64,000 nucleotides of DNA from Mycobacterium phage prophiT36-1: the sequence record OQ417966.1; one strand, given 5' to 3'. Every line of letters starts with the position of its first letter. Within the stretch, counting starts at the first letter, position 1. Positions 24,603-57,278 of the stretch are shown here, one piece after another. The position numbers were made by a program, and so were the translations under genes. Under the pieces are notes generated by a model, which worked only from the letters and a program-made list of their open reading frames with translations, searched no databases and had not been told where the DNA came from.

Positions 24603-24832
24603 TGTCGGCCAAGTCCTTCGCGCAGCTCGTCAAGTATCCGCTGTTCTACATCGCGCTGGCCGGGGTCTCGTTCCGGATTGGTTGGTGTGCAGCCCATTAC
24701 GTCAGTGACCGCATGGACAACTTTGATCCAGATATCGGTAGGGGTTATGTTCTGTTGAGACGTTTGTCTTGGAGGTATGTCGATGAGCGATCGAGCGTAT
24801 CGGGTTGTTTACGGAGCTTACGCTGGGCTTGA
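24602..24832 (+). CDS. Small membrane protein ORF, 76 aa, that crosses the left boundary of the duplicated block. The first 46 codons are phage-side and the last 30 codons are inside the repeat.
   Basis: ATGA overlap with the stop of the 23904-24602 gene. One TM-like segment LFYIALAGVSFRIGW. The ORF continues across the 24740/24741 junction and into the first recombinase gene in another frame, so its C-terminus is probably an insertion artefact. Confidence 0.25.
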   Translation: MSAKSFAQLVKYPLFYIALAGVSFRIGWCAAHYVSDRMDNFDPDIGRGYVLLRRLSWRYVDERSSVSGCLRSLRWA

Positions 24833-30542: not shown

Positions 30543-30927
30543 GGAAATCCGTGCCGCGATGGAACGCCTCCTAAACGGCGACGCCCAGCACACCGACGGA
30601 CGCCTAACCAAAACCAACCTTGCGGTAGAAGCCGGCGTGGGTCGGGCGACCCTCTACCGCCAGCACGACCTGATGGCCGAATGGGCGCGCCGCGTCACCG
30701 AATCAGACATCGCCCCACCCGCCGCGTCTGCCGCGGCCACGATCGCACACCTGACCCGACAGCTGGCCGACGAACGCTCCCGCCGCCGCGAATCCGACCG
30801 CATCGCCAACGGCCTGGCCTTCGTGGTAGCCGAGCTCTACCGCGCGCTAGAGGCTCGGACTCCCCCAAATTCTTCACGCGGCACGATCATCCCGATAAAC
30901 GCCAAAACGCGAAGGCGCGCAGACTAG
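30529..30927 (+). CDS. Small HTH protein, 132 aa, TetR-like, translationally coupled to the recombinase trio.
   Basis: 14-nt overlap with the end of gene C. N-terminal KTNLAVEAGVGRATLYRQH matches the TetR-type HTH signature (AG-V-x-x-x-T-L-Y). Confidence 0.5.
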   Translation: MGSREEIRAAMERLLNGDAQHTDGRLTKTNLAVEAGVGRATLYRQHDLMAEWARRVTESDIAPPAASAAATIAHLTRQLADERSRRRESDRIANGLAFVVAELYRALEARTPPNSSRGTIIPINAKTRRRAD

Positions 30928-30988
30928 CCTGAGCCCATTTCACATACGAGCGAATGAGTTCATTGCTGATCGAAGCAGTACGGGATTC

Positions 30989-33900
30989 GTGCGTGGGAGC
31001 GGTGCCCGCCATGAATGGACAGCGCCGGCATCTGATCGGGACCGTTCGAGCGCGACTTACGTGGGGAGAGGTTACGTGGCCGACAGCCAGGCACTTCGGA
31101 AAGTTCGGTATGCAGACAAGTTCCGGGGCTATCAGGGCCAGGCTATTGCTATGGCCCGGAAGTATCGGCGCAGCTTCCACGACGAGGACGGCGCGCAGGG
31201 GCTTGATGCCGCATTGGTTTACCACCCCACGGGTACGGGCAAGACAGCCGTCATTGCCGGTCTAACGCACGCGGCACACGAAATCGGCAATGTCCTGGTG
31301 CTGACCACACGCGAAGTCATACGTGATCAACTGGTGCGCGAGCTCAGCGGTGGCCTCTTCATTGACGAGAACAAGTTCGCGCTGCCCATGCGCCACAAAC
31401 TTTCTAAGGTCTGCTTCGCGGTGGCCGAGTCCCGCCAATTACTCGGCACAGCATTAGCGTTGCATGCGGCGACGCGAAAACGCATCCCCGACCAGGTGGT
31501 CCGGGAGTTCAGTCAGCGGCAGTTCGAGCGGCTTGCACCCGAGCCCGACATCGACATCGTGAGCCACTTGCATGAACAGAACTCTGTTCTCATTCTCACC
31601 GTCCAAATGCTGGCCCGCTTGCACCGAGGCCGCACCGGGCAGTCACCGATATACGACGTCTTGCGTCAACACGTAGACCTGGTCGTCTTCGACGAAGGAC
31701 ACTACGAACCTGCACCGCGCTACAGCGAGGCAGTGCGGGATCTAGGGCGCCCTACTGTGCTGTTGACCGCTACCCCTTTCCGTAACGACCTGAAAGCTTT
31801 TCGCATCACACCCGAGCATGTCGACATTTATCGATTCACCCAGGCGGTGCAGCAGCAGCACATCAGAGAAGTCCAGATCGTGCAGCGCACACCGACACGT
31901 GACCCGGACAAGTTCTGCGCCGATGTTCTCGATTTCTGCACATCGGTGTGGGGACCCGATCCAGGGCAGTGGACCCGCCGGATCATTATTCGCTGCGACG
32001 ATGTCGAGTGCGTAACACGCCTTGGCGAAGCATTCATAGCCCATGGCTTCAAGGACCGAGTCATCGGCATCCATGACCGCTACACCAACCCTGGGCAAGG
32101 CGACGGGCAGCCATGGCAATACCGCACAGTCCCAGCGCCGTCGGAAACCCAAGCACTAGTATGGATTCACCAGCATAAACTGCTAGAGGGCGTCGATGAT
32201 CATCGCTTCCAGATTCTGGCTTTCTTCAACCCACCGACCAATGTGCGCGCCATTGTCCAACAAATCGGCCGAGTCGTAAGGACCAAGCCTGGTGGCCAAG
32301 ACGCAGGCAACGCATACGTTTTGGACTATTTCGCCGGGCGCATCGCTAGATACTGGAGTCTATATCGCGGGTATGACGCTGCAGCCACGCCCGAGGCAGT
32401 CACTATGACCGCATCACGGTTCTACCTCACGAGATTCACCGCTGCACTGCCGCAGTTCGATTACATCGACCAAAAGTTTCGCCAGCGGCTCGATCTGTTC
32501 GACCACGACCAGCAAGCCCAGCTCACTGACACCATCGCCGACGAGATCTTCTTCAAGCGCACTGTGGCACTTAGACAGATACCAAACACCCTGACGATCC
32601 AGGACGTTGTCCCGCTTCTCGAGATCGCCCTTAAGGAAGGCGATTACGAGTACCAGCGATTCGATGTGTCGAAGATATGCCCCAATACCGCTCTATTCCT
32701 GTGTTCCCGGGTGAACAATGTCGACTTTCTCAACACTTACTTCTTCCCCGAGCCGCACCTAGAAGCCCGGCTCGTGATGCTCTTCCCAGAACACGCACTG
32801 CTGGCCTCGACAAGTACAGCAGGCGCATCGGTCAAAGATGGACTAGGGATTCTTGCGCGGTACGATCCGACCCGACTTGAGCGACTCCTATTGCCGGGCA
32901 ACGATAACCGGGGACGCATCACCAGCGTTTCCTCTAAGAACATGAACCTCAGTAGCCGGGCAGTGCGCGGTCGGGTCGTCTACGCAGCATCCATGGCTGA
33001 CATCCCGGCAGCCCTCGATGAGCACGGCCATGTCGTCTCCACGGTCACCGGCTACAACGGCTCGGCTCCACAGGTCATAGACCACCTCGAATACCAAGTA
33101 AGTGTGTTGGCCGATGAACTTGCCAGATCAGGGGCGACCACCGAAGGGCCTGGCACTGGTGCAACCCTTGTGCGCCGTTACGTGGGCATCGCAAGCGGTC
33201 ACGTGACTGAGTACCTTCCACCACTGCGCATCAAGGCATTCCGTACTTGGGTGCAATCACTGGCGAACCAGATGGATGACCCCGCACGCTATGACCGAGT
33301 CTTTAGTCGCTACGCCGAGCTCGCGGTAGGCGAGACGGTCTCGGGCGCAGCCCAGAACCTGCTATTGGACTTCACCGAGCTCACCGAGCTCTACCGGCAC
33401 CGCCTCACCGGCCAATGCGTTATCAGCGATGATGTGTGCGCCGACAGATTAGGCGATCCATACGGTACACCCGAACAGCCTGCGGCACAGTTCATCATGA
33501 CGATAAATGACACCCCATACACAATAGCCGCCACCTTCAACACCTCGTCCAAGCGGTACCGCATCGAGTGCCCGGCGCTCGACTATGACTTCATCCCGAT
33601 CGATGACCGCGACGGCTCGTTGATACGTGCGATAAACCAGATGCAGGCTTTCACGGTGGTCCCAGAGGACCGAGATCGCATCTACGCGCACGGGAGCTTC
33701 TATGCGCCGTCCCTGAAGTTCGGGCCAGACCGATTTAACCCCAACGGTTTCCCTATCGGACACCTGCTTTACCCCTCGCAACAGTTCAAGTCTAAAGAGA
33801 CAGAAAAAGGGGATAAAGTCATTGGCGGCAACCGTTACCAGACACACAGCCTGTTCGGCCTGATCGACAGCTGGAAGTCAGGTTTCGATACCGCAGAACT

Positions 33901-34474
33901 CGATCTCGACCCTCACTGGGTGCGGCGCAGTGGCTATGTCCCTGAATCGCTCTCGTTTTCACCCACTGCGCTCATCGTGGACGACATGGGTTGCGAATGC
34001 GCCGATTTTATTATTGCCGACACGCTCGGGCGGCGGGTTGTGCTGATTCATGGCAAGGCATCCGAGACGTGGCGCCCGTATTCGGCCTCAGCTCTGCAGG
34101 AGATCTGTGCGCAGGCTCAAAAGAACACAGCGCTGTTCTCCTCGCGTGAGCCCCGCATGCCGCCAAACATCACCTTGTGGGACAAGGCACACAACTTCAA
34201 CAACCTGTCGGTAGCTAAACGAATCCGGAAGCCGAACAGAGATACGGCGGAGAGGATTTGGCACGACCAACTGGCGCCGCTGTTAGCCAACCCACTCACT
34301 TCGCGCGAGATCTGGCTGGTGCTTGGCAACATGCTGTCGGCCTCAGAGATCATCGCGCAACTAAAGACTGACCGGCCTGCCGCCGAAGTCCTACAGCTAA
34401 CGCAACTACTGCACACCACAATGGAAGCCGCACGCGGCGTAGCAGCAAATCTGCGAATCTTCTGTTCGCCATAG
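30989..34474 (+). CDS. SF2 (ResIII/DEAD-like) helicase fused to a large C-terminal region with a putative PD-(D/E)xK-like nuclease motif, 1161 aa. Candidate single-protein defence helicase-nuclease.
   Basis: Helicase motifs in order: FRGYQGQAI (Q-like), HPTGTGKTAV (Walker A/I), LVVFDEGHY (II, DEGH), LLTATPF (III), QQIGRVVRT (VI). C-terminal segment IVDDMGCECADFIIADTLGRRVVLIHGKAS resembles D ... E-x-D ... K of restriction-endonuclease folds. GC is lower than in the phage module. The start codon is uncertain (GTG 30989 or the in-frame ATG at residue 55). Confidence 0.65.
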   Translation: MRGSGARHEWTAPASDRDRSSATYVGRGYVADSQALRKVRYADKFRGYQGQAIAMARKYRRSFHDEDGAQGLDAALVYHPTGTGKTAVIAGLTHAAHEIGNVLVLTTREVIRDQLVRELSGGLFIDENKFALPMRHKLSKVCFAVAESRQLLGTALALHAATRKRIPDQVVREFSQRQFERLAPEPDIDIVSHLHEQNSVLILTVQMLARLHRGRTGQSPIYDVLRQHVDLVVFDEGHYEPAPRYSEAVRDLGRPTVLLTATPFRNDLKAFRITPEHVDIYRFTQAVQQQHIREVQIVQRTPTRDPDKFCADVLDFCTSVWGPDPGQWTRRIIIRCDDVECVTRLGEAFIAHGFKDRVIGIHDRYTNPGQGDGQPWQYRTVPAPSETQALVWIHQHKLLEGVDDHRFQILAFFNPPTNVRAIVQQIGRVVRTKPGGQDAGNAYVLDYFAGRIARYWSLYRGYDAAATPEAVTMTASRFYLTRFTAALPQFDYIDQKFRQRLDLFDHDQQAQLTDTIADEIFFKRTVALRQIPNTLTIQDVVPLLEIALKEGDYEYQRFDVSKICPNTALFLCSRVNNVDFLNTYFFPEPHLEARLVMLFPEHALLASTSTAGASVKDGLGILARYDPTRLERLLLPGNDNRGRITSVSSKNMNLSSRAVRGRVVYAASMADIPAALDEHGHVVSTVTGYNGSAPQVIDHLEYQVSVLADELARSGATTEGPGTGATLVRRYVGIASGHVTEYLPPLRIKAFRTWVQSLANQMDDPARYDRVFSRYAELAVGETVSGAAQNLLLDFTELTELYRHRLTGQCVISDDVCADRLGDPYGTPEQPAAQFIMTINDTPYTIAATFNTSSKRYRIECPALDYDFIPIDDRDGSLIRAINQMQAFTVVPEDRDRIYAHGSFYAPSLKFGPDRFNPNGFPIGHLLYPSQQFKSKETEKGDKVIGGNRYQTHSLFGLIDSWKSGFDTAELDLDPHWVRRSGYVPESLSFSPTALIVDDMGCECADFIIADTLGRRVVLIHGKASETWRPYSASALQEICAQAQKNTALFSSREPRMPPNITLWDKAHNFNNLSVAKRIRKPNRDTAERIWHDQLAPLLANPLTSREIWLVLGNMLSASEIIAQLKTDRPAAEVLQLTQLLHTTMEAARGVAANLRIFCSP

Positions 34475-34510
34475 TTGTTGCTACAGAGTATAAATCAAGA
34501 TCTGCCGGAC

Positions 34511-34768
34511 TCAGTGGTCGGCGAAGAAGTCGCCCGCTGAAGCATCCAACGCCTCCGCAATGTCGACGAGGCGTTCATACAGAAGTCCCCGGCGGCCGTG
34601 CTCGACGTCAATGAGTACGTTGCGAGTCACACCCGACGCCAACGCGAGCGCCTCTTGAGTCAGGCCCCGCGCAAGACGCAACGCGCGGATGCGGGCGCCG
34701 ACCGCCTGCCGAGTATGTTCCCAGGCAATCACACGCTCGGGATCGTTCTGCTGAGGGCGGGTAGGCAT
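34511..34768 (-). CDS. XRE-family HTH transcriptional regulator, 85 aa.
   Basis: Classic HTH_3 signature LRLARGLTQEALALASGVTRNVLIDVEHGRR. Convergent with the helicase gene and divergent from the 246-aa gene. Confidence 0.75.
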   Translation of the reverse strand: MPTRPQQNDPERVIAWEHTRQAVGARIRALRLARGLTQEALALASGVTRNVLIDVEHGRRGLLYERLVDIAEALDASAGDFFADH

Positions 34769-34778
34769 TAACCCAGTT

Positions 34779-35519
34779 ATGGAGCGCCCGTACCAAAAGT
34801 CTGCCCTACTAGTAGTACATTGCTGTGTTGTGTTTGAATTCGATCCCGAAGATGCGTCTGTAGAGACTGTTTCGGCACTGGCCCTGGATGCGATGGACGA
34901 GCTGCGCAGGAAGTTGATCGAATGCCTTCTGGTGTTGCAAACGTTGTCTGATGAAGCTGATCTGAATTTCGTCGATCTAATTAGCGATCTGCAGGCCGTT
35001 CACCGAGGTACTCAAGAGGCGTATCGAGCAGCTAGTCTGGTGCATCAGGGTGCTCAGCTAGACGGCCGATGGGGTAACAGTTTGTCCAAGCCCAAAGCCG
35101 TTTTCGCTCGCCATAATTCAGCAGTGCGTCGCGGCGCCAAAAAGGTAATCCCGATGTCGGCACCATCTGACCTGGTGGAGCAGAGTTTGTATCACTTGCC
35201 CAAGCCCGACCGCGTTCAAGCAACCGTGGGTGACCGGCCCCAATGCGCGGGCACCGTTCGTTCCACAGGTGAAAGCTGTGCCAGCTCCGCCATGTATCTG
35301 GGTTCGGGAGCATTTGCAGCGCACTGTTATTCGCACGCTACTCCCGCTGAACGTGAGCGGTACAGGGTCTATCACAAGGAGATTGATGCGCGACGTGCGC
35401 GCACATATGACGATTTGCGCGAGCGTCAGTGGGCGGTCGGTCGCGAGATTCTCGCTCACTGGATCTCTAGTCGCGAACATGGCATCGAGTGGCTTGAGAA
35501 AGCTATCGCTGAAGTTTAG
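34779..35519 (+). CDS. Hypothetical protein, up to 246 aa, with a Cys/His cluster suggesting a zinc ribbon (C-x10-C ... H-C-x2-H).
   Basis: The ORF is divergent from the XRE gene; the true start is probably an internal ATG near 34893. Segment PQCAGTVRSTGESCASSAMYLGSGAFAAHCYSH. No known family recognised. Confidence 0.4.
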   Translation: MERPYQKSALLVVHCCVVFEFDPEDASVETVSALALDAMDELRRKLIECLLVLQTLSDEADLNFVDLISDLQAVHRGTQEAYRAASLVHQGAQLDGRWGNSLSKPKAVFARHNSAVRRGAKKVIPMSAPSDLVEQSLYHLPKPDRVQATVGDRPQCAGTVRSTGESCASSAMYLGSGAFAAHCYSHATPAERERYRVYHKEIDARRARTYDDLRERQWAVGREILAHWISSREHGIEWLEKAIAEV

Positions 35520-35876
35520 AAGCGCAGGGCGTTTTACTGCTCCTTCACGAGCGCACGGGCAGGAGTCACAACGATTCCGTCAGCCAATCGGACCGCGAGT
35601 GGGCTACGCCACGTAGAGCGAAGATCATTTACACAGATTGGGCATCTAAGTCTTTGCCCTGCGATGAAATGCTCGTTGTTTCGGACGACGCGCACCCATG
35701 ACGGAAGCTGCCGACAGGATGCCTACCCTTGGCCGAACGAAACATTGAGGCAGTCCTGCAAGCGCAGCGAGGACGGTCGGCGGGCCTCCAGTGTGCGGGC
35801 AGGACATCACGGTGATCTTGCGGGCTGTTGGGCTGGCCCGCTCTGCCTCGACGGCCCGTAAGGGCACGTAATTCGT

Positions 35877-37649
35877 TTGCTCTTTACGGGCGGTCGCGTA
35901 GCTTTGTTTTGTGTTCCTTTCCATCCGGGGCCATTGGCTTGCCGCTTTACGTATCTTGGACCGTTGGTGAAGCTGCGGCGCCTGACGCGGCGCGAAACAA
36001 ACGAGAGCCTGCGCCGGCGATGGGCATTTTTTCAGGCGCATCTTCGCGACGAATTTGTCCACTCCGCACAAGGCGAGCAGGTACTCAAGTACGCCTTTGA
36101 GTTGCGCCGGGTTAATCGGCCAGATACTGATGTCGAACATTTCAAGGCGGTGGTCGCTGCCGAGCGTGACGTGTGCGAGGCGCGGGCACGAGCAGCTCTA
36201 GACCGGGTGAACCCGGCCAGTGTTCTGGTGCTGGGGGTGATTCTTGAGCGCGCCGGTCAATCGCGTTACCGGCAGTTCCTGGGCGCGTTTGGGATGTCGC
36301 GGCTCGTATGGTTGATCGGAGCGGCCGGCGGGGGCACTGGACCTCTCGGTGAAGGTATTCGAGAGTTCTTCGATTGTGCAGTGCCCTGGTTAGCTGTTAC
36401 CGCATTGGAAAGTGAGCTGTGGTGGCAGCCCACGGGACGTGACCCTGATGATGCGACCGTGACAGCGGTTGGTTCGCGCATGGTCAATGCGCATACCCGC
36501 CTGTGGTGGGGCTCGTTGATGGTCGCGCGCTCACTGCTGCGGCAGGCACGCCGACCCGAGTTACCCGAAACGATCGTCCCGGAGCTGGTGCAGTATCTCG
36601 TCGCAGCCAACGGGGCCAACCTGCGCGAGCGCGCAGAATTCATTCTGCCGCCGCTGAGCACTCAGGCCCGCACATTTGCGACCGCATGTTCAGTGCGGGC
36701 CGGTCAGTACGCGGGCCGTCGGCTCGATGACCTGGTCAATACCCGCATTGACGGTGAGAGCTCGGGTGGGCAACCGTGCGAGACTTACCCGTTCATTCTC
36801 GTAGGTGAGCAGCTCGTGCCGGCCACGATCTATGTCTTGCGCGGCAGCCTGCACGTTATGTTCGTGGACTACCTGCGTAGAACGCTCAAAGACGAAGGCT
36901 CCCAAATCTTTGAGCGCACGTGCGGGGACCTGATCCGTGAGCTGCTGGGCACGGACGGTGAAATGCTCACCGACGTCAATATTCGGATATCCCATGCGGA
37001 ACGAAAACATAAGGGCCAAACTGATTTCGCGGCACTTTGGCAATCAGTCCTGCTTATCGGGGAGGTTAAGGCTGCGTTGGAGCCGGTCTTGCCACGTAAA
37101 TCTGGGGCGTCCTATGACCGTGACGTGGGTAAAGCATTCACGCAGCTCAATGAGCGATTGGCCGCCGCAGCTGCCGGAAGCTCGGTGTCGGCGGCCGGTC
37201 GGATGGTTAAGGCCGAAGAATATTCACAAGTGCGAGGACTTGGGGTGGTGATGCACGATTTCGGCGGCGAGATCTGGCGGCATAGAGCACATGGCGGGAA
37301 GTTCAAAGACTCTGCAAGACTGCCGATTATTACGGTCCAGGACCTCGCAGTGATCGCTCACACATTGAGCGGGATGGATGAGTTTCTCCGGTACCTGGAC
37401 TTCCGTCAGCAGCTCCTGGGGGCAGGTGTGCGGGCTATGGAGGAGTTCGACATTCTCGCCGGTTTCCTGGCGCGAGGCCCGGGCCCGGGTCAGCAGCTTA
37501 CTCGTGCGCAGAGGCGTGCGACACGAAATGGCAAAGGGCACATCAGGCTTGCGGCCCGCGCTGTTCCCTTGTCTTTGCAGCATGTCTTCGAGCCGCCGGT
37601 GGATAAAGCTGGCTGGCGTCAGATCGTCGCCGGAATGCCCAGGGTCTGA
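35877..37649 (+). CDS. Hypothetical protein, up to 590 aa, with a PD-(D/E)xK-type nuclease motif; candidate effector or partner of the downstream OLD-family gene.
   Basis: Segment ERTCGDLIRELLG ... GQTDFAALWQSVLLIGEVKAALEP fits E ... D-x12-E-V-K of the restriction-endonuclease fold. Same strand and adjacent to the 601-aa gene. The start is uncertain (the N-terminal ~60 aa look non-protein-like). Confidence 0.45.
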   Translation: MLFTGGRVALFCVPFHPGPLACRFTYLGPLVKLRRLTRRETNESLRRRWAFFQAHLRDEFVHSAQGEQVLKYAFELRRVNRPDTDVEHFKAVVAAERDVCEARARAALDRVNPASVLVLGVILERAGQSRYRQFLGAFGMSRLVWLIGAAGGGTGPLGEGIREFFDCAVPWLAVTALESELWWQPTGRDPDDATVTAVGSRMVNAHTRLWWGSLMVARSLLRQARRPELPETIVPELVQYLVAANGANLRERAEFILPPLSTQARTFATACSVRAGQYAGRRLDDLVNTRIDGESSGGQPCETYPFILVGEQLVPATIYVLRGSLHVMFVDYLRRTLKDEGSQIFERTCGDLIRELLGTDGEMLTDVNIRISHAERKHKGQTDFAALWQSVLLIGEVKAALEPVLPRKSGASYDRDVGKAFTQLNERLAAAAAGSSVSAAGRMVKAEEYSQVRGLGVVMHDFGGEIWRHRAHGGKFKDSARLPIITVQDLAVIAHTLSGMDEFLRYLDFRQQLLGAGVRAMEEFDILAGFLARGPGPGQQLTRAQRRATRNGKGHIRLAARAVPLSLQHVFEPPVDKAGWRQIVAGMPRV

Positions 37650-38019
37650 ACTCGCCGCAGGACCCGGGAACGGCCGACCTCCGCTAAGCCTGCCTGCCCA
37701 GTGCATCGGTGGGTCGGTAGTGGTTTGGGACTGTGTCTGATTGCCAGCCATTCGGATTGGGCGAGCTATGCCTGACAGTTCGCACCTGACTCTCGCTGTC
37801 AGTTGTCGCCCACATACCGCTCCAACGCTATCCAGACTGGTCCTGGCACTTCCGAAGTAGCGACGTACTGTGATCTTTCAGTTCAGAACAGTGTTTACGC
37901 GGGGGTCCTTCGCGGCAGCTCCTCGCAAAGTCGGCGGCCGGTAGATATTGTGTCGCACTGCGACAACAATCAGATTCAGATCCCACCGTCTACCTGTCGC
38001 GTCTAACTGAGGGGGTTCC

Positions 38020-39825
38020 ATGACGGCTGAGCCAGCACCGCTCGGCGAAGGCATCGCCGAGCACTTCGGGTTTGCTATTGCGGGGGTCAGAGTCGGTGAT
38101 GGTGAGATGCTCGACTTGCCTGGAGCGGGGAGCGTCATAGCTGTTGTGGGGGCGAACAATGCCGGAAAGTCCACGTTCCTACGTCAATTGCAGGAGATCT
38201 TGGCGTGGCACGGACTCACCAAGGAAATGACGCCCCGCGTTGTTACGGAAATCGCGGAGCCATGGGTTGGTTCGGTCGAAGATTTCACCGCGTGGCTGAT
38301 CGCTAACGCCCAGATTGACGAGCACACGGGTCTAAGGAATGTGACCCGCAACGGCACTCACCCGCAAATACCGTTGCAGAACACTGCCTCGATCCGGAAC
38401 CAACCCACACCTGGCGCTGTCCTGCACTGGTTTGTCGGCAATCATCAGCCAGGCGACCGGCAACACGCCTGTTCGATGTCAGGTAGAGCTGACCCGGCAG
38501 GATTACCCCCACAGACACCCATGCAGGCCCTGTTCGCAGACATACCGAAACGCAAAAAGGTGATTGACCTCGCTGCCCGCTTGTTCGGCGTTCAACTGCA
38601 CTTCGATACCGTCAGTGCGTCTATCGGCTTCCGTATCGGCAAACCCGACTTGCCGGCGCCAAACGTTAACGAGATAGACGCTCAGTATGCTCGCGCGGTT
38701 GGAAAACTGCCACCTCTGATCGAACAAGGTGACGGCATCAAGTCAGCGCTCGGCCTCTTGATCCCTCTGATTACCAACGCGAACCCGCTGTCGATCGTGG
38801 ACGAACCCGAGGCCTTCCTCCACCCACCGCAGGCAGAGCTTCTCGGCTTCGAGATAGGGAAAATTGCTCGGGACAACAGATCCCAGGTTGTCCTCGCGAC
38901 TCACGACAAGAATCTTCTGCAGGGGATCGCGAGGAGTGGAGCCCCCGTATCGATTATTCACTTACAGCGAGCTGGAGACACCACGACGGCTATTCGTCTC
39001 GGGGCCGAAGATATCGAAGACCTCTGGAAAGATGTGACCCTTCGGTATGGCAATGCGCTCGACAGCCTATTTCATCGCGCGGTCGTCATCACCGAAGGTG
39101 ATCGGGATTCGCACTTTTTTCGTGCGGCGATTGATGCGGTTCATGAGGGCATACACCCGCAGCCTCCCGCACACAACCTGATGTTTCTAAGCAGCTATGG
39201 CAAGCAGAACATGGCGCACATCGTCGAACGTCTTCGAAAGCTGGGCGTACGGGTCGTCACATCTCCCGACCTCGACATTCTCAACAACGAAACGCTGCTG
39301 CGCCGGCTCGTTGTTGCCCACGGCGGCGACTGGAACTCGATCATGCAGCTTTACAAGCAGGCAACGAACGAATTCCTCGGTCCTGCAAAGCCTCCCACGA
39401 TCGACGACGTACGCACAAAGATTGATGACGCCCTGAGTAAATCGACCGATGGCGTCTTGGACAGGCCTTTAGCTCAGGCGCTAGCTGTGGCCGTTGCGCT
39501 CCCAACAACAAACTGGGGCAAGCTAAAAGAGGCCGGCACCCGGGCATTTAATGCAGACAAGAAATCGGCGACTGAACTTCTGGATGCTCTGGACGCGATC
39601 GGCATCGTTGCCGTCAAGGTCGGGGAGCTGGAAAAGTTTGTAACAAACGCTAACCCGCCAAAAGGCCCCGAGTTCCTCCCTGTCGCCTTCGCTGCGGGAG
39701 CGCACATCGCGCCGGAGGCAGGGGAACATGCAAATCGGCTATTGATAGCAGCCGGAATCACGGTTCCAGAGACGCGCCCTGTTCACGATCAATGCTTGCC
39801 CGCATGCGCCCAGACCTCAGGCTGA
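38020..39825 (+). CDS. OLD-family nuclease (overcoming lysogenization defect; P2 Old-like, class 1 architecture): N-terminal ABC ATPase plus C-terminal Toprim domain, 601 aa.
   Basis: Strong SD gaggggg. Walker A VVGANNAGKSTFL. OLD/ABC Walker B signature LSIVDEPEAFLHPPQ. H-loop VVLATHD. Toprim glutamate AVVITEGDRDSHFF. Toprim DxD VVTSPDLDILN. This order and spacing are diagnostic of OLD-family ATPase-Toprim proteins. Confidence 0.8.
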   Translation: MTAEPAPLGEGIAEHFGFAIAGVRVGDGEMLDLPGAGSVIAVVGANNAGKSTFLRQLQEILAWHGLTKEMTPRVVTEIAEPWVGSVEDFTAWLIANAQIDEHTGLRNVTRNGTHPQIPLQNTASIRNQPTPGAVLHWFVGNHQPGDRQHACSMSGRADPAGLPPQTPMQALFADIPKRKKVIDLAARLFGVQLHFDTVSASIGFRIGKPDLPAPNVNEIDAQYARAVGKLPPLIEQGDGIKSALGLLIPLITNANPLSIVDEPEAFLHPPQAELLGFEIGKIARDNRSQVVLATHDKNLLQGIARSGAPVSIIHLQRAGDTTTAIRLGAEDIEDLWKDVTLRYGNALDSLFHRAVVITEGDRDSHFFRAAIDAVHEGIHPQPPAHNLMFLSSYGKQNMAHIVERLRKLGVRVVTSPDLDILNNETLLRRLVVAHGGDWNSIMQLYKQATNEFLGPAKPPTIDDVRTKIDDALSKSTDGVLDRPLAQALAVAVALPTTNWGKLKEAGTRAFNADKKSATELLDALDAIGIVAVKVGELEKFVTNANPPKGPEFLPVAFAAGAHIAPEAGEHANRLLIAAGITVPETRPVHDQCLPACAQTSG

Positions 39826-40244
39826 TACGACCGCGACGCCGGCTACTGACCTTGCGGACGTGCTCAATACAAGTGCTCAGTTGCGCGCGGAGCTAATCTG
39901 CAGTTGGGTCAGGTATGTACTCGATTGTCGCTTATGGTGGTTGGCGAGTGGTATTGAATCGTGGGGGACAGGGTTATCTTTAGGCATGTACTTGTCGGTG
40001 TATATGGCTGGTGCTAACGGATTTCAGCGCTGTGAATGTTTTATTCGGCCGAGCATCTCAGCCTTCGGGGCAAGCGATCAGTTTCTCCACGGCTGCTGGT
40101 CGAACCTCGACATGGATTCGTCTGAGGCCTGCAACAGGTGGCACTAACCCGACCTCTATCCATGCGGATACTTAATCGACATCCGCGAGAGCGGCACCCT
40201 GTTCGCGCGACCCCAACTGGCGTTCCTACCCAGCTACGGGCATA

Positions 40245-41039
40245 TTGCTGCCAAATCTGTTGGTAAACACCAGTTTACGGCTTTCGCCGTATACACCAAT
40301 TCTCGTGCGAAGAGACGCATCTGAAGCGCTCCCAGCCTCTCCGGTCGCAGGAAAGAAAATACTCTGGCCGATACGTGGTTCGATTATGCCCATGCATGGT
40401 TTCCCTTTGGCCCCAGGCTCTTTGGGCTACAAGCGCTGCCACCTCACCGTCGGGGGAGAGTTTCGACTGTCACAGACTGATTGTTGCGATGCCGGCCAAG
40501 ACGAGTTGTTCGGCGTCCTCGACGACCGATCAGCTGTGGTGTTCATCCACCCAAACGCGCTTCCCGCTGCGCCACCTGACGGCGTACCGCCGTTCGCGGT
40601 CGACTTCCTGCTGGACACCACTCGCGCGGCCTACCTGTTAGTGCATAACGGCATTCGTGCGCGGTTTCCGAATACCCATTTCATACTCAGCCACGGCGGG
40701 GGCTTCGTGCCTTACGCCTCCCACCGGATGGCATTCTCGCTCGAATTGGAAACCGGTAACCCCGCTGAGGAGATGCTGGCATTGTTGTCGAGCTTCTATT
40801 TCGACACGGCCGTGACGTCCAGCCCTGCATCCTTGCCGAGCCTGCTGGCCTTCGCCGACTCCGGCCATGTCGTCTACGGATCGGATTGGCCCTTCCTACC
40901 TGCCGACGCCGCTAGGAGGTTCACCGGTAATCTGGGTCGTTACCTTGGATTAGATGATCGGGCCCGCGCCGCAATCGATCGCGGCAACGCCGAAAAGATC
41001 TGGGGAACACCGCCGCCAACCCGTGACGAGGTCGGCTAG
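40245..41039 (+). pseudogene. Amidohydrolase-2 (PF04909-like metal-dependent hydrolase) gene fragment, 5'-truncated; it lacks the N-terminal HxH metal-binding motif.
   Basis: Contains family signatures VVFIHPN, FILSHGGG and VVYGSDWPF only in the last ~165 aa of the ORF. The first ~100 aa of the ORF have no HxH and look non-homologous. Preceded by a 420-bp lower-GC non-coding stretch. Confidence 0.5.
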
Positions 41040-41612
41040 TCGGCGGGCAGGCGCTGTGGCCGACAAGGATCGGGCCAACAAGCAACCGCCAACATCAGGG
41101 CGCTCTCAGAGTATCGCGATCGCGCCATCCACCTGTACAACGCCCAGGGTCTTGGCGCGCGTTCGTGCTGGTCGTAGCTTCCGTCGGGATGGATGAGAGG
41201 TCAGGCGCACCCCAAGCCGATCAGCACTCGATTGCCGTTGTTCGCCGGTATTCTGGGGTAGGTTGCGGCGTCCGTATTCCGTCTGGCTGATTCATGAAAA
41301 CCCGCTTGCTTGCATCAGGTTTTGAAGATTGAGACGAACCGCCGAGGGACCGAGCAGAGGCTGCTGAACTACTAGGTGCTGCCCCCCGGTGAATTCGCCC
41401 GTCGACCGGTTGACTGTCAGCGCCCGGTGCGCCTTCCCCGAGCAATAGACATCCAGAGCAGCGGAGCCGAGTTAGCGCTTGTAGTGGCAAGCAATTACCC
41501 CTTCAGAATCGAACTCTGAGCGAGCTATGTTTGCGAGCCAGCACCGAACGCCGCTCGACCGCGATCGGCACATAGTGCCCGGCCATCGGCCGGGCTGCGA
41601 GATGATTGATCT

Positions 41613-41963
41613 ATGCGGTACATCAAGCGAACCAACACTGTGGAACTGACGGCTCGAAACGTCACCGCGCTGCTCGCCAAGCTCGACGACAGACTTTCCG
41701 CTCGTACACTGATTTCACCTGACGACGACTTCGTCGTGCGAGCCATAGAGAACAACGTCAGCCTCGACAGTGCCGAGCCGCCAAAGGCGGTCCCTGTCCA
41801 TACAACGGTGACGCTTACCCGCGACGACCTGTGGTACCTGACCACGCCGGGCGCGACGCTTACCCACGGCGCATTTACGTTGCGGTCTGTTACGGACGAA
41901 GCGCACTACAGCGATCGCGCCCCTGGAGCTGTCTACATGCCCGAGTCCGGGGTTCAGTGGTAG
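41613..41963 (+). CDS. Hypothetical protein, 116 aa.
   Basis: ORF in a lower-GC accessory region; no motif. Confidence 0.3.
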   Translation: MRYIKRTNTVELTARNVTALLAKLDDRLSARTLISPDDDFVVRAIENNVSLDSAEPPKAVPVHTTVTLTRDDLWYLTTPGATLTHGAFTLRSVTDEAHYSDRAPGAVYMPESGVQW

Positions 41964-42116
41964 CAAATACCGTATGACGACGACCGTCCCACGAGCTCCG
42001 GAAGGGCACTCCCCTCCCGCCGCGAGGCTGCGAGCAGCCGCACCATACATCGCGGGTGTTGACCAAACCAGTTGGTGAACTCGAGCTAGTAGCAACCCAG
42101 GTCCCGACAGACGATC

Positions 42117-43721
42117 GTGCTGTCGGCGCCAGCAGGCACACTGAGTGTCGTGGGCACAGATCTGGAGGTCTATAGGCGCGGGGCCCCATGGACACCGCAA
42201 GAGATCACTGAGCTCATCGAGCGCATCCGCGCAGGGTCAGGCCGCACCGACATCGCGCGCACCCATGGCCGCACACCCGGGGCCCTCGACGCGGTAGCCT
42301 GGCGCCTCCTGTCAGCAGACCACAGACCTGAAAAGAAGACCCGCCAGGCAGTGGAGTTGCTACGTGCCGAGATCAACGACATCTCCGCAGGGGCAGAGAC
42401 GGATTGGTGGGCGCGCTATCTCCAAGGCCGCAAGATAGCCAACGCCGCGAAACCCGCAAGAACCAGGTCTCCCCAGGCGCCCAAAACGACTGCGACACCG
42501 AAAACCCCCAAACCGCTTCTGCCACTACCGGAGTGTGTGCAAACGTTCGCCGAGCAGCCAGCAATTGACTGGACGCAGCCAGGGACGGAAAGCGAACTTG
42601 GCCTACTGATCGTTCAAGTCGTCAACGAGATCGTGGACCCACGGAACCGATACATCATGGCCCGGCGACTCGGATTGATCGACGGATCAAATACTTTGGA
42701 ATCCATCGGCGAAACACTGAACCTAACCCGCGAACGGGTCCGCCAACTACAAAACACCGCGATCACACAGGTCCAGCACGACGCACACCGCCTCGGATCG
42801 GCCGCCGCAACGCTCGCAGTGGTCTTCAACTTCCTCGATAAGGACCCCACCGCAATCGAGGCACTGGCCCAATCCTTGTTGACCGCCGCACAAGAGCTAT
42901 TCAGCTGCCAACCGACCTGGCTTATCAAATCCGTCAGCCGCATGGGCGGGCGCACACCACGACAGGCTGACGAGATCGCCGCGGCAGCTGCGGCGATCCG
43001 TGACGCCGAACGTCGGCGCGGACGCGAACTTGCCCATGAACAACGGCAGATCCTCACCTGCGATCGCATCGTCGACAAATGGATTCACGCAGCCACCTGG
43101 CCCCCGCACCTGAAACACGCCGATTCCGAGCGCAGCACACAACGGCGCCGAATGCCAACGCCCTCAGGAATTGCCTCCGTCGGCTCTTTCGATTCCGAAA
43201 AGAACGGCACCGTTGTCCATTTCGAATCCCTACTTGAAGAATCCGTGTTCATCACCGCCGAAGGCAGCGACAAGATCCTCACCTATCAAGAGCAGCCCTG
43301 CCAGATCGCATACATCGGGGAGGACGGGCAATCACACACGTACTACCCTGACCTACTCCTGACGCTCAACGATGGCCGCATGCTGCTAGCCGAGGTCAAG
43401 CCACTTTGGCAGATGGCATTGACCACTAATCGCATCAAATGCGAAGCAGCGCAACGCTATGCGGCACAAACTGGATGGGGATGGGTATCGGTTGGCTCCA
43501 GCGGCCAAGCCTACCGAGACCTTGAACAACGAGATATCAGTGACTTGACGCGCGCATCGCTTACCGCGGCGCTCAACGAAGGCCCGGTGTCCTGGGCGCA
43601 CTTGCAGGAGCTACGAACTCAGGCGCCAATCACAGCGATGGACGTCGCGGCATTCGCCGTGCAAGAAAACATAGGGCTTGAACTGTTTCCATATCGCCTG
43701 TACCACGTCAACGACGTGTGA
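42117..43721 (+). CDS. DNA-binding protein with a sigma-70 region-4-like HTH and a C-terminal TnsA/PD-(D/E)xK endonuclease-like domain, 534 aa.
   Basis: RNRYIMARRLGLIDGSNTLESIGETLNLTRERVRQLQNTAI resembles the sigma-70 region 4 HTH. C-terminal YYPDLLLTLNDGRMLLAEVKPLWQ fits PD ... E-V-K. The Pro/Lys/Thr-rich linker is low-complexity. Confidence 0.45.
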   Translation: MLSAPAGTLSVVGTDLEVYRRGAPWTPQEITELIERIRAGSGRTDIARTHGRTPGALDAVAWRLLSADHRPEKKTRQAVELLRAEINDISAGAETDWWARYLQGRKIANAAKPARTRSPQAPKTTATPKTPKPLLPLPECVQTFAEQPAIDWTQPGTESELGLLIVQVVNEIVDPRNRYIMARRLGLIDGSNTLESIGETLNLTRERVRQLQNTAITQVQHDAHRLGSAAATLAVVFNFLDKDPTAIEALAQSLLTAAQELFSCQPTWLIKSVSRMGGRTPRQADEIAAAAAAIRDAERRRGRELAHEQRQILTCDRIVDKWIHAATWPPHLKHADSERSTQRRRMPTPSGIASVGSFDSEKNGTVVHFESLLEESVFITAEGSDKILTYQEQPCQIAYIGEDGQSHTYYPDLLLTLNDGRMLLAEVKPLWQMALTTNRIKCEAAQRYAAQTGWGWVSVGSSGQAYRDLEQRDISDLTRASLTAALNEGPVSWAHLQELRTQAPITAMDVAAFAVQENIGLELFPYRLYHVNDV

Positions 43722-44117
43722 CCGACGTTCGCCGTCAACCGTTGCGGGAATGCGCCCCGTGAGATGAGTATTCGCCCATCGGCGGCCGCCCATGGGCACT
43801 CGTATGGATACATACACGATGGGTACTCACCCAAACAGGTACCCAGCTGCGCGGGCGACGCGAGCCGGCGTGCCATCTCGGATTCCTAGCTAATCCAATG
43901 CTTGGGCTGTTTCTGCGCACATGTCACACATATACTGATCGCCACGTAGCTGCAGGTTACGCATCGGTTCGGTACTAAGCCCGCCTGTGACGCTCGATAT
44001 AGCAAACATAGAGATCTCGCAGACGCCTGGACATAACCCAGTTTATTCTGTCATGATTCTCGCATCAGCTGCACCCACACGCGGTGTACAGCAAGTATCG
44101 GGAGGGGCAAGCTGCGC

Positions 44118-45305
44118 ATGATTATGAGTGATCTTTGGCGCATGTCGACGGGTTTGCGTAGAGCTTCGGCGGTGGTCGCCGGTGTGGCGCTAGCCTTCGG
44201 TGGAGCGAAGGTGACCAGCGACCACACCGTGCCTGGCAGCGGGTTTTCGACACTCCAGACAGCCGCTGCGGATCCGACCGGTCCCACGGGTGGCCCTGGC
44301 GGGGGGCCGGGTGGGATGAATGGATCCCAGTTCCAGCCCCCAGGCTTGCCGCCGCAGATGCCTGACTATCAGGGCGGTATCAACCAGCCGCCGTTAGATC
44401 AGAATTCTGGTATCAGCATCTACAACACGGGATCGCCAGGAGCACAGCAAGTTCCATCGCAGCAAGGTGCACAACAGTCTCAACAGGGGCAGCAGCCTGC
44501 GCACGGAACCCAAATCCCTGATTATCAAACAGCAACCCCATACACTCAGGGTCCCGGTACGGAGAATCCGGATTACCAAGCACCACAACAGAATTCTCCC
44601 CAGCAGGACCATCAGCAAAATAATGCTCCCACGCAGACTCAGCAGCCCAGTCAAAAAGACCAGCAGGACCGCGAACTGCAACAGCAATGTCAGCAACAGG
44701 CTCAGTATTACGGTCTTGCTGAACAGATGGCCAGCTTTATCGCGTCGGCAATGGGTGGTGCCGGGAGCCTCTTCGGGCAACCCAGTCGCCAGTGGGGGCC
44801 TGCCTTTGAATGCAGTTGCGCACCTGAGCAGGGTGGCCCCCATAAGCAATCACCTGGCGACGATGAAACAAGTCAGCCGTGCGTACCAACCGATGGCATT
44901 CCAAAAAGGATCGTGGGCGCGGATTACACCTACAATTTGGCCACACAACAACTATCCTGGTTAGGCACTTTCCCAGGTTTGATGCCGTTCTCGGGAACCG
45001 TAAGTGTGGCTCCCGGCGCCTCAGTTTTCATACCGGGCAACGCCCAATGGACAAGCGCGACTTTGACAATCTGCCAAGCGCCCTCCGAAGGCCCTAGCGG
45101 TCGCAATCCAGCGCAAGATAAGCTCCTAACCAAGGGAGACATCAAGAAGTTGGAGGACGCCGGATTTGACGTTCACGAGCTTAAAGGCGGTAAGAACGCC
45201 TCGAAGTTCGATCTGTACAAGGACCGAGAGGGAAATATCTACGTGAAGCCAAAAGGCGGGCGTGGCGAGGGCGATCCGCTAGGGATAAATATCAATGACA
45301 TCTGA
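44118..45305 (+). CDS. Secreted Pro/Gln-rich protein with an N-terminal twin-arginine-like signal peptide and a compact C-terminal toxin-like domain, 395 aa.
   Basis: N-terminus MSTGLRRASAVVAGVALAFGGAKV (RR followed by a hydrophobic core and A-x-A). Long P/Q/G low-complexity middle. Distinct C-terminal domain ending GGKNASKFDLYKDREGNIYVKPKGGRGEGDPLGININDI. Followed by a small overlapping gene. Confidence 0.4.
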   Translation: MIMSDLWRMSTGLRRASAVVAGVALAFGGAKVTSDHTVPGSGFSTLQTAAADPTGPTGGPGGGPGGMNGSQFQPPGLPPQMPDYQGGINQPPLDQNSGISIYNTGSPGAQQVPSQQGAQQSQQGQQPAHGTQIPDYQTATPYTQGPGTENPDYQAPQQNSPQQDHQQNNAPTQTQQPSQKDQQDRELQQQCQQQAQYYGLAEQMASFIASAMGGAGSLFGQPSRQWGPAFECSCAPEQGGPHKQSPGDDETSQPCVPTDGIPKRIVGADYTYNLATQQLSWLGTFPGLMPFSGTVSVAPGASVFIPGNAQWTSATLTICQAPSEGPSGRNPAQDKLLTKGDIKKLEDAGFDVHELKGGKNASKFDLYKDREGNIYVKPKGGRGEGDPLGININDI

Positions 45306-45705
45306 GCTCGATCCTTCCAGTATTCCCGTTATCAGAACGCTGCTGAACATTACGGGCTTGTTTGACCCCGACACATTTACAGCTGCAGTTTTACTGACGC
45401 CAACACGGACTGTGCGTGCAGGAGAAGCGCGCTCTCCACAACTCGCCTTCACTGAAGACGCCTGGAAAATTGACCTCGGCAAGCACGAGGCCGTCCACTT
45501 AGAGAGCGAAATGGATCGGCTACTCGCCCTGCTTTTACCAGTGGGTGAGAGATTCCGCGAAACTGTGGCAGCGATGGGCCTCAGCGCCGAAGTAGCATTT
45601 CAGTGCAGTGCGGACGCGGGATACTATCCTTCAATATCTTTGCGCCATGACCAGATAAAGCAGCTAGCTGCCCTTGGGCTTTCGCTCGATATTGACATTA
45701 TCTAG
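45295..45705 (+). CDS. Small cytoplasmic protein, 136 aa, overlapping the end of the toxin-like gene; immunity-protein candidate.
   Basis: 11-nt overlap with the upstream gene (translational coupling). No signal peptide. Confidence 0.3.
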   Translation: MTSELDPSSIPVIRTLLNITGLFDPDTFTAAVLLTPTRTVRAGEARSPQLAFTEDAWKIDLGKHEAVHLESEMDRLLALLLPVGERFRETVAAMGLSAEVAFQCSADAGYYPSISLRHDQIKQLAALGLSLDIDII

Positions 45706-45755
45706 ATAGCAGACCGGAATTACGGCTGCTACCGATTATATTCATTCGAGGGGAT

Positions 45756-46322
45756 ATGAAGATTCGAATTCTCGTAATTGCGGCGTGTGCCGTAGCCTTA
45801 ACGGCGTGTGGGCAATTAGAAAAACCAACACCTGCCGATCCTGCATCGCCGTCAACTCGTGAGTCGACGGACTTCAATAACATCCCCGGACAGTTCCCTT
45901 CGCCGGCGACACTGACCACGAACGGGCAGGCTGAAGCGCCAGTCGGAGGCTGCGTGAATCTGAGCGGACCCGCAGTCAACGCCTTACTCACACTCGTTGA
46001 TTGTGGCTCGCCACAACATACGTACCGGATCGTGCAGCGCGTCAACGTTCCCCAGGAATGCGGTGATATTGACCGTTCGTACTACCACAATTCCCAGGCC
46101 ACTGGCCAGTACACCGCGTGCCTCGACTTAGCCTGGGATGCCAGCGCCTGCATCAGCCTGGCCCAGCCTGTAGCGAAAGTCTCCTGCACCGATCCGAACG
46201 CGCCCCGCAAGATCAAACCAACAAAGATTGTCCTCGATTCAACGACCCTCGATAGCTGCCCTGACGGAGGATATCCGCACCCGGTACGCAAATTCACCGT
46301 CTGTACCGAAACCCAGGACTAA
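45756..46322 (+). CDS. Lipoprotein, 188 aa, Cys-rich mature domain.
   Basis: Signal peptide plus lipobox LVIAACAVALTACGQ (L-T-A-C). Multiple conserved Cys in the mature part. Confidence 0.55.
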   Translation: MKIRILVIAACAVALTACGQLEKPTPADPASPSTRESTDFNNIPGQFPSPATLTTNGQAEAPVGGCVNLSGPAVNALLTLVDCGSPQHTYRIVQRVNVPQECGDIDRSYYHNSQATGQYTACLDLAWDASACISLAQPVAKVSCTDPNAPRKIKPTKIVLDSTTLDSCPDGGYPHPVRKFTVCTETQD

Positions 46323-46652
46323 GCGGTGGTGTCCTGGGGCGTCCAGGCGCAGGTGGATGCGGTAGTTCGCTTTCGTTGAGGCGCTGTGCGCCTGGTTGTC
46401 GTAGAGGTTGTGGCCGATGCTGCGGACGGCGTGTGTTCTGGTGATCAAGCCCAGAGCACGTAGTAACCGGAGGTAGTGCGGCGCCGATGATTGCTCCGTG
46501 CCTACAGCTTCTGCGAGGTCACTGACCGGGTGCGGCAAGCCGTATGGGGCGAGTCGGGGAGCGGCACATTCAGCGGTACGGACAAATCTCTCGGCGGCGT
46601 GATCGGCATATTCGAGTGGTAACTCCGGTGACGGCTGGTTGCTGCGATTGGC

Positions 46653-47177
46653 TTGATGGGTTTGCCCTGGGCGGCTAGTTTGTTGGGAATGTCAGGTTGG
46701 TGGGGCCGGTGGAGGTCCGCAGGTCGGGCCTCGGTAAGTAGTCAGCACACGGTGGTTGTTGATGCGGTCGAACACGTATTGGCTGGAGTTTCCGTATCAG
46801 ATTGCTCGGTACCTGCGTTGGCGCAGCAGTGGGTGCAGGGCGAGGGGCGGGAGTTGGTGATCGAGGATGTGGTGTTGCCTGCGGGGGTGTTCGGACGTTG
46901 GCTCTCGGTGCCGGGGCAAGACATTGTCCAGGTGGGTGCCGGCGTTGTCGGCCGTGACCGCACGATCGCTCATGAGTTGGGGCACATGGTGTTGGGGCAT
47001 CGGGGCCGCCCAGTTACTGAGTATGTCGAGGGATTGGTGCAGGCCGCTTCTGCGGATCTGATTACGCACATGTTGCAGCGGGCGTGCACAGAGGAGCCGG
47101 GGCAGCAAGAGGCGGCCGGATGGCGGCAGGACGAGTTGGCGGAGCATGCGACGACGCTAGCGCGCCTAATCGATTGA
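46653..47177 (+). CDS. ImmA/IrrE-family HEXXH metallopeptidase domain ORF; the N-terminal part of the ORF looks non-coding, so it may be a fragment or pseudogene.
   Basis: GRDRTIAHELGHMVLGH matches the ImmA/IrrE R-x-R-x-T-x-A-H-E-L-G-H zinc-binding box. The first ~40 residues of the ORF are Trp/Gly/Arg-rich junk-like. Confidence 0.4.
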   Translation: MMGLPWAASLLGMSGWWGRWRSAGRASVSSQHTVVVDAVEHVLAGVSVSDCSVPALAQQWVQGEGRELVIEDVVLPAGVFGRWLSVPGQDIVQVGAGVVGRDRTIAHELGHMVLGHRGRPVTEYVEGLVQAASADLITHMLQRACTEEPGQQEAAGWRQDELAEHATTLARLID

Positions 47178-47284
47178 AACCGACGAAGGTCATCCTGAAC
47201 TCCGTTAGCGTCGAAGGTTGTCCGACAGGTGGTTTCGCGCATCCGCTACGCCGGTTCACCATTTGTACGGAGATGCAGAAGTAG
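47160..47284 (+). pseudogene. Diverged 3' remnant (last ~40 codons) of a paralogue of the lipoprotein gene at 45756-46322.
   Basis: The translation PNRLKPTKVILNSVSVEGCPTGGFAHPLRRFTICTEMQK aligns with PRKIKPTKIVLDSTTLDSCPDGGYPHPVRKFTVCTETQD, including both Cys and the stop position. No upstream remainder of the gene is present. Confidence 0.45.
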
Positions 47285-47544
47285 ACGCATGCGGCCGACA
47301 GCCGGGAGGTTTGGCCGGGATCGAGTACCGCACCTCGAGTGCATGTCTGACGGACGTGGGATCCAGGTGACAATGGCATTCGAGGCCACAGTGGAGCGGT
47401 AGACGGTCACGAGCTTTTTCGGGGTTGGCCGAGGGGGCTCCATGATCGCTGCACGGATTCCGTCTCAACATGTCTGTAGAGACAGCTTGACGTCCGTACA
47501 TAACGCGGGGGGTTATGTTCTGTTGAGACGTTTGTCTTGGAGGT

Positions 47545-57242: not shown

Positions 57243-57278
57243 TTGTTGCTACAGAGTATAAATCAAGATCTGCCGGAC

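Follow-up and report, generated by a model that had tools for sequence, protein, structure and literature searches.

Class 1 OLD proteins have been found by DefenseFinder in 0.45% of genomes (PMC12392090). Few stand-alone OLDs have been characterised, and those in the literature that we found (P2 Old, Ts OLD, Vc OLD and E. coli YbjD) include none from an actinobacterium. The Thermus scotoductus enzyme, Ts OLD, nicks and degrades DNA (PMC7049728). Vc OLD of Vibrio cholerae nicks DNA and blocks phage genome replication (PMC12392090), and P2 Old, once activated, cuts the anticodon stem of tRNA (PMC12445682). Class 1 OLDs with demonstrated defence are P2 Old (PMC12445682) and Vc OLD (PMC12392090), and defence by Vc OLD requires both ATPase and nuclease residues (PMC12392090). 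A literature search found no paper on OLD proteins of mycobacteria, M. abscessus included. We examined an OLD-family gene carried on an integrative element in a 64,000-nucleotide stretch of Mycobacterium phage prophiT36-1 (OQ417966.1); the whole stretch is referred to below as the window. The gene product is a new actinobacterial member of the known stand-alone OLD nucleases and a distant relative of P2 Old, not a new system.

The protein resembles P2 Old (Class 1, AAD03309.1) in several respects. Both are single polypeptides of about 590-600 amino acids (aa), both are encoded by a stand-alone gene on a mobile element or prophage, and both contain G-x-NNAGKS, EPE-x-x-LHP, (S/A)TH, Toprim E-x-x-x-(D/E), GK and DxD, as well as a distal G-x-(I/L)-E motif beyond a helical insertion. 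The two differ in host, an actinobacterium here and an enterobacterial phage for P2 Old, and the tRNA anticodon stem substrate and the trigger by RecBCD inhibition, described for P2 Old, may or may not be shared by the protein here. Vc OLD (Class 1, a DNA nickase) is likewise bacterially encoded and stand-alone, but belongs to another phylum and has an inhibitor, Oad1, that acts specifically for phage ICP1; the likeness is drawn from its published description. GajA (Gabija, Class 2) has the same ATPase-Toprim fold but requires an adjacent UvrD-like GajB; no such gene lies beside the OLD gene here or beside its homologs.

The OLD gene and its family assignment

The gene is an open reading frame (ORF) on the + strand with an ATG start and a 601-aa product. 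A Shine-Dalgarno-like GAGGGGG (38008-38014) lies 5 nt upstream of the ATG. The start codon is credible because the closest homologs open with the same MT(A/T)EP N-terminus. The gene copies and the features of the protein are the following.

38020..39825, + strand: OLD-family ATPase-Toprim gene, copy 1, 601 aa plus stop (Pfam, PADLOC, Ts OLD 6p74)
60788..62593, + strand: OLD gene, copy 2, a 100% identical direct repeat with the same translation as copy 1
38149..38175, + strand: Walker A (P-loop) GANNAGKST, residues 44-52, with K50 as predicted catalytic lysine (alignment, model)
38794..38826, + strand: OLD-type Walker B and D-loop IVDEPEAFLHP, residues 259-269, with D261, E262 and H268 (alignment, model)
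38893..38907, + strand: H-loop LATHD, residues 292-296, with H295 (alignment)
39085..39108, + strand: Toprim motif 1 VITEGDRD, residues 356-363, with E359 as predicted metal A ligand and D363 as predicted metal B ligand (alignment to Ts OLD)
39262..39279, + strand: Toprim DxD SPDLDI, residues 415-420, with D417 and D419 as predicted metal A ligands (alignment)
39319..39600, + strand: helical insertion in the Toprim domain, about residues 434-527 (predicted helices; boundaries approximate)
39622..39633, + strand: GELE motif (G535, E538), probable second metal-B ligand, after the last Toprim strand (profile alignment)

The original prediction, made from the sequence alone, had described a complete OLD-family ATPase-Toprim protein in one polypeptide and had named five motifs. 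All five, from Walker A to the Toprim DxD, were found in the order stated, and profile searches found both domains, a result well outside what chance would give. Pfam matched AAA_21 (E 3.1e-12) and AAA_15 (E 3.7e-8) as well as OLD-like_TOPRIM (PF20469), the last at residues 350-419, scoring 28.2 bits where the gathering threshold is 23.2. Among 58 matches to PADLOC models, Old ranked first (E 3.3e-19), ahead of AriA (2.4e-13), ATPase-Toprim_I-B (1e-9), AriAB (1.4e-8) and the GajA models (1e-8 to 1e-6), a lead of at least six orders of magnitude. No NCBIfam model scored above its cut-off for the protein; retron_eff_Eco8 reached E 5e-5 and 22 bits, against a cut-off of 250 bits.

The protein has more than 1000 homologs, and its proposed kinship to P2 Old was borne out by direct comparison, which was significant and in register. 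BLASTP against P2 Old (from AF063097) gave 22% identity over 176 residues with E 5e-10. The alignment was in register at Walker B, the H-loop, the Toprim glutamate, GK and DxD, and Walker A aligned separately. Comparison by hhalign of the profile of this family with a P2 Old family profile built from 27 relatives gave a probability of 97.5% and E 8.7e-12 over 284 columns; this alignment extended to GIVAVRVGELE here, paired with GIxIWKxGAIE in the P2 Old family.

When the family profile was searched against PDB sequences, the sole strong match was Ts OLD (6p74, Class 1), with E 3.8e-12. In this match Ts E377, D381, D431 and D433 paired with E359, D363, D417 and D419. Weaker matches were seen to the Retron-Eco8 OLD (5e-5) and AriA (0.0099), and GajA fell short of E 0.01. 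An AlphaFold2 model built from the alignment (predicted local distance difference test, pLDDT, 87; predicted template modelling score, pTM, 0.82) placed every motif at its canonical strand end. In the model the P-loop follows strand 39-44, Walker B ends strand 257-261, H295 follows 289-293, E359 follows 354-358 and DxD follows 411-415. A Foldseek search of the PDB with the model returned 6p74 first (E 1.1e-9) and the Retron-Eco8 OLD second, with GajA at E about 1e-6. A Foldseek search of BFVD did not list P2 Old; its hits were giant-virus OLD-like endonucleases and generic ABC proteins. The gene product is very probably a Class 1-type OLD enzyme whose active site is intact.

A near-palindrome, ATTGTGTCGCACTGCGACAACAAT, with core GTCGCA-C-TGCGAC, lies at 37946-37969, about 50-75 bp 5' of the OLD start and within the 371-bp gap upstream of the gene. 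Spotted by eye alone, it might be an operator candidate; an inverted-repeat search (at least 8 nt) of this gap reported none, the near-palindrome included. A promoter and terminator scan around the gene found sites no commoner than chance, and an Rfam search of the gap found no known RNA, retron-like or other.

Conservation and the predicted active site

Conservation was assessed from an alignment of 32 homologs, down to 35% identity. The expected catalytic residues were all invariant or almost so. In Walker A, G44, N46, N47, G49 and K50 were invariant; the counterparts are GYNNAGKS in P2 Old and the P-loop of Ts OLD. The degenerate signature region was conserved at Q236, G237 and G239. Walker B and the D-loop were invariant at D261-A265 and L267-A272, including H268-P269-P270, and correspond to IDEPELYLHP in P2 Old and EEPEMYLHP in Ts OLD, so that the Walker B acidic pair is DE here versus EE in Ts OLD. 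The H-loop was invariant at T294, H295 and D296 and corresponds to STHS in both Ts OLD (H310) and P2 Old.

In the Toprim domain E359 was present in at least 90% of homologs, D363, D417 and D419 were invariant, and G394-K395 was conserved. Toprim motif 1 has its counterparts in Ts E377/D381 (LLVEGYGDR) and P2 E398/E402, and DxD in Ts D431/D433 and P2 D453/D455. Overall, K34, E276, H283, H310, E377, D381, D431 and D433 of Ts OLD all have aligned counterparts here; the catalytic roles of the Ts OLD residues have been described (PMC7049728). In the GELE motif G535, L537 and E538 were invariant, and profile-to-profile alignment made G535 and E538 the partners of G540 and E543, which are invariant in the P2 Old family (WKxGxIE). 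E536/E538 may be the second metal-B ligands, the putative equivalents of Ts S478/E480, and K503 or K548 is a candidate for the catalytic basic residue of the two-metal site.

An enlarged helical insertion in the Toprim domain

The interval from D419 to E538 spans 119 residues, mostly predicted helices (438-527 in the model), and W438, Y445, T449, W499, K503, G506 and F510 within it were invariant. The same interval is 88 residues in P2 Old. In Ts OLD only 47 residues separate D433 of the DxD from the metal-B glutamate E480 (PMC7049728), and that protein has 525 aa, compared with 601 aa and about 180 residues after the DxD here. The Ts OLD archetype has neither a helical Toprim insertion nor a C-terminal helical domain (PMC7049728, PMC12796447), a description from which the present protein departs. 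The insertion is common to P2 Old, the founding Class 1 member, so that the lack of an insertion describes Ts OLD and not the class as defined by gene context.

Stand-alone status

Class 1 is defined in terms of context by standalone genes in variable gene neighbourhoods (PMC12796447, PMC7049728). We compared 82 other loci holding OLD relatives, 80 of them from representative genomes and two from look-ups. Neither p590 nor p246 nor the 1161-aa helicase, which precede the OLD gene in the window, had a homolog near the OLD relatives at these loci, and none of the other neighbouring genes in the window recurred there. When flanking ORFs within 4 kb were clustered, the largest cluster occurred at 6 of the 82 loci, with sides and strands mixed. 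The nearest substantial ORF on either side of the relatives was also scanned (149 proteins, 78 loci). No Pfam family appeared more than four times among these neighbours, helix-turn-helix (HTH) regulators being the most frequent, and no UvrD-type helicase, reverse transcriptase (RT) or DUF4435 protein recurred. Across the 82 loci no separate Toprim protein recurred. No conserved partner was thus present, and the gene therefore belongs to Class 1 by context. The nearest solved structure is also that of a Class 1 enzyme, Ts OLD, in agreement with the stand-alone Class 1 architecture originally proposed.

Resolvases, integrases and transposases are found among the neighbours of the relatives, as are, in single instances, Mrr, DrmD/DrmA, BrxH, Hma, type I and IIG restriction-modification components and PADLOC candidate systems. 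In M. setense, which has an 84% identical OLD gene, nucleotide identity with the window was confined to the ORF. GmrSD adjoins the M. setense copy.

The remaining OLD classes were considered and rejected. Class 2 (Gabija GajA) was rejected since an Amidohydro_2 gene lies downstream and no UvrD-type family recurs near homologs; upstream lies the 590-aa protein without a family match, and neither side of the OLD gene holds a UvrD-like gene. The prediction that the gene is not half of a GajA/GajB pair was therefore upheld. Class 3 (retron effector) was rejected, there being no RT domain in the ORFs of the element and no Rfam match with E<=1 in 23000-48000. For Class 4 (PARIS AriA/AriB), the grounds for rejection were the single gene, the Pfam match to OLD-like_TOPRIM and not to DUF4435, and the PADLOC scores for AriAB and Old given above.

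Distribution

At least 343 M. abscessus contigs encode an identical 601-aa protein, which the index places in 634 blocks of the collection. Elsewhere the protein is annotated solely as "Predicted ATPase" or "AAA family ATPase". The representative of its 90% cluster is a 494-aa fragment without Walker A, the product of the frameshifted gene in the draft assembly MAB_091912_2446 described below. A megablast search of the OLD region against phage and plasmid collections returned no match.

The carrier element and its prophage setting

The OLD gene is carried by an element that is present twice in the window.

24741..47508, + strand: integrative element, copy 1, 22,768 bp (repeat period, junctions, gene content, GC)
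47509..64000, + strand: element copy 2, head-to-tail with copy 1 and cut by the window end (100% identity over 16,492 bp)

The direct repeat was exact: 24741-41232 and 47509-64000 are 100% identical, with a period of 22,768 bp, and the identity is ended only by the window end. The two OLD copies that had been proposed are accordingly present, at 38020-39825 and 60788-62593, and encode identical proteins. The gene order of the element is tyrosine recombinase, two recombinase-like genes, SF2 helicase, p246, p590, OLD, amidohydrolase, TnsA-like/sigma-r4, and Ntox33 with DUF4279. Its GC content is 0.59 versus 0.65 in the prophage.

Window positions 1-24744 are 100% identical to positions 32001-56744 of Mycobacterium phage prophiT48-1 (OQ417964.1), and this prophage stretch codes for portal, capsid, tape-measure and minor tail proteins. 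In OQ417964.1 the sequence goes on with genes 81 and 82, lysin A, lysin B and a WXG100 toxin cassette, all of which are absent from the window. At 24745 the window changes from prophage to element sequence, within or just after prophage gene 81. The prophage sequence thus breaks before the lysis cassette, and the element is therefore inserted inside the prophage. The element had been described as lying next to a prophage; instead, the array sits between the tail genes and the lysis cassette of a prophiT48-1-like prophage, which it probably disrupts.

Elsewhere in M. abscessus the element, at 99.98-99.99% identity, is found within a T2SSE (tad-pilus ATPase) gene, which it interrupts. This was seen in all 24 of the other M. 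abscessus contigs read and is the usual site. The T2SSE target is split at GGC ACG GGC GCG GG/C AAG ACC ACG, which encodes the Walker A residues G-T-G-A-G-K-T-T (GGCACGGGCGCGGG/CAAGACCACG; the slash marks the split). The prophage target, GGTAGGG/GGAAGTAC, resembles the T2SSE site and looks like a secondary pseudo-site. Short inverted repeats were present at the element ends (left, GTTATGT...GTTGAGAC; right, GTCTCAAC...ACATAAC), and the junction between copy 1 and copy 2 reads ...ACATAACGCGGG/GGGTTATG.... Junctions were read at window positions 24741-24760 and 47440-47515 and on two further contigs (L095:6640-6720 and L001:19130-19200). With two different insertion sites, the element is mobile. 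A single element copy was found in the other genomes examined. The head-to-tail array, whose right end lies beyond the window, may have arisen by true tandem integration or may be an artefact of assembly.

Other genes of the element

The remaining genes that were characterised are listed here by window position.

24777-30542: recombinase trio, proteins of 464, 657 and 828 aa
30989-34474: 1161-aa SF2 helicase, with ResIII and SWI2_SNF2 at the N-terminus
35877-37649: p590, the 590-aa neighbour of OLD, with no Pfam, PADLOC or NCBIfam match
within 42117-43721 and 44118-45705: 534-aa protein with sigma-70 region 4 and a TnsA-like endonuclease N domain
within 42117-43721 and 44118-45705: 395-aa Ntox33 polymorphic toxin, then a DUF4279 protein

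The element had been described as carrying a recombinase trio. This holds for the 464-aa protein, which is a clear tyrosine recombinase (Phage_integrase and SAM-like N domain, XerC/D-like). The 657-aa and 828-aa proteins gave sub-threshold Phage_integrase matches only (E 0.0099 and 0.0045), and a PDB sequence search with these two returned no meaningful relatives. The 464-aa recombinase was not on record in an exact look-up; its annotated start probably differs.

The 1161-aa protein had been called an SF2 helicase-nuclease. Its helicase domains were found but no nuclease domain was detected, and its last 170 residues match the PADLOC candidate defence protein PDC-S71 (E 2e-25). In annotated genomes the helicase gene is closely followed, on the opposite strand, by an 85-aa HTH_31/HTH_3 gene.

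The PD-(D/E)xK motif that had been attributed to p590 has a candidate counterpart: D383 and E396-V-K398 are invariant and lie on predicted adjacent strands, compatible with a PD-(D/E)xK core. The attribution may hold at the level of the motif, the AlphaFold model of p590 being unusable (pLDDT 37, only 4 sequences). Relatives of p590 are very scarce: a search of 5.8 billion proteins gave 3 clusters (M. abscessus, M. holsaticum and one metagenome). The M. holsaticum relative lies near SNase, VbhA/Fic and NACHT-like genes. The DUF4279 protein is likely the immunity gene for the Ntox33 toxin. In several other strains the toxin gene is cut to 107 aa.

Proposed function

The protein is predicted to consist of an N-terminal SMC/Rad50-like ABC ATPase fused to a C-terminal two-metal Toprim nuclease, and by analogy with characterised OLDs it is probably active as both. 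ATP binding and hydrolysis by the ATPase head would license the Toprim site to cut nucleic acid, with E359 and D417/D419 predicted to hold metal A, and D363 and probably E536/E538 to hold metal B. The substrate may be DNA, as for Vc OLD and Ts OLD, or the tRNA anticodon stem, as for P2 Old. Carried as cargo of a 22.8-kb integrative element that is widespread in M. abscessus, the gene would most likely act as a single-gene anti-phage defence through abortive infection or a replication block.

We infer an anti-phage or anti-plasmid role from homology and context. A defence role is suggested because of the homology itself, the variable, mobile-element-rich contexts of the relatives, and the other cargo of the element, which includes the Ntox33 toxin and the PDC-S71-matching helicase. 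On these grounds a function in anti-phage defence is rather likely. We place the probability of the whole reading, a stand-alone Class 1 OLD enzyme carried as anti-phage cargo, with defence argued from homology and context, at roughly 0.8.

Several observations weigh against this reading. The protein and P2 Old are only 22% identical over 176 residues, and the segment from Walker A to the signature does not align. The PADLOC Old match is partial, covering profile positions 287-478 of 578 and one further stretch, and an automated pipeline might miss the gene for this reason. In one draft M. abscessus assembly (MAB_091912_2446, L001:9681-11485) the OLD gene is frameshifted near codon 73, giving ORFs of 92 aa and 494 aa; either the sequence contains an error there or the gene is a pseudogene in that strain. 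Most genes directly beside the homologs are not defence genes. No functional data were found for this OLD protein or for any actinobacterial relative, and not all OLDs are defensive, the archaeal Cran1 acting in the cell cycle (PMC12796447).

Cran1 shows that a housekeeping role is possible for an OLD. The enzyme could then serve the maintenance, replication or stabilisation of the element (by addiction or anti-competitor activity), DNA repair or the cell cycle, and its gene is indeed fixed on the element in hundreds of assemblies, with many homologs amid ordinary chromosomal genes. We consider such a role quite unlikely, given that this is an accessory gene in a variable neighbourhood, as is typical of defence genes, that its cargo companions are a polymorphic toxin and other defence-like genes, and that those bacterial Class 1 OLDs that have been put to the test are anti-phage (PMC12392090, PMC12445682, PMC13261556). 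It is very unlikely that OLD belongs to a multi-gene system, a new Gabija-like class, with the upstream p590 and/or the 1161-aa SF2 helicase. The three genes do lie on the same strand as cargo of one element, and the PDC-S71 match of the helicase C-terminus and the invariant D...ExK of p590 would be consistent with a joint system. However, the genes are separated by intergenic gaps of 300-420 bp, neither p590, p246 nor the helicase accompanies OLD relatives at the other 82 loci, neither of the two other p590 relatives has an OLD gene beside it, and the M. setense copy has only the ORF in common.

A fused PARIS-type (AriA-AriB, Class 4) or retron-type (Class 3) OLD, which would need a phage trigger protein or multicopy single-stranded DNA (msDNA), we regard as very unlikely. 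Fused AriAB is hard to tell from a Class 1 OLD (review PMC10568477), PADLOC also matches AriA, ATPase-Toprim_I-B and AriAB, and the Eco8 effector gives a weak NCBIfam match and the second-ranked Foldseek structure. Yet PADLOC Old is ahead by six orders of magnitude, Ts OLD leads both the Eco8 OLD and AriA in the PDB profile search (3.8e-12 versus 5e-5 and 0.0099), and Pfam gives OLD-like_TOPRIM, not DUF4435. The element contains no RT gene or Rfam RNA, and no RT recurs among the 149 neighbours. The stand-alone Class 1 enzyme thus remains our reading of the gene.

Implications

A broader proposal, in which the actinobacterial clade forms a distinct OLD subclass through its enlarged conserved insertion and a differing N-terminal insert and in which the array, as a defence-carrying element inside a prophage, disables or hitch-hikes on a resident temperate phage, appears doubtful. 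If it is true, the insertion and the N-terminal insert could specify a novel substrate or trigger; a phage replication intermediate and a mycobacterial tRNA are examples. Phage therapy against the pathogen M. abscessus is held back by resistance that is poorly understood. If active, the OLD protein would be a candidate for a factor that sets phage host range in clinical isolates, and it would offer a convenient single-gene system for the question of DNA versus tRNA cutting in OLD enzymes.

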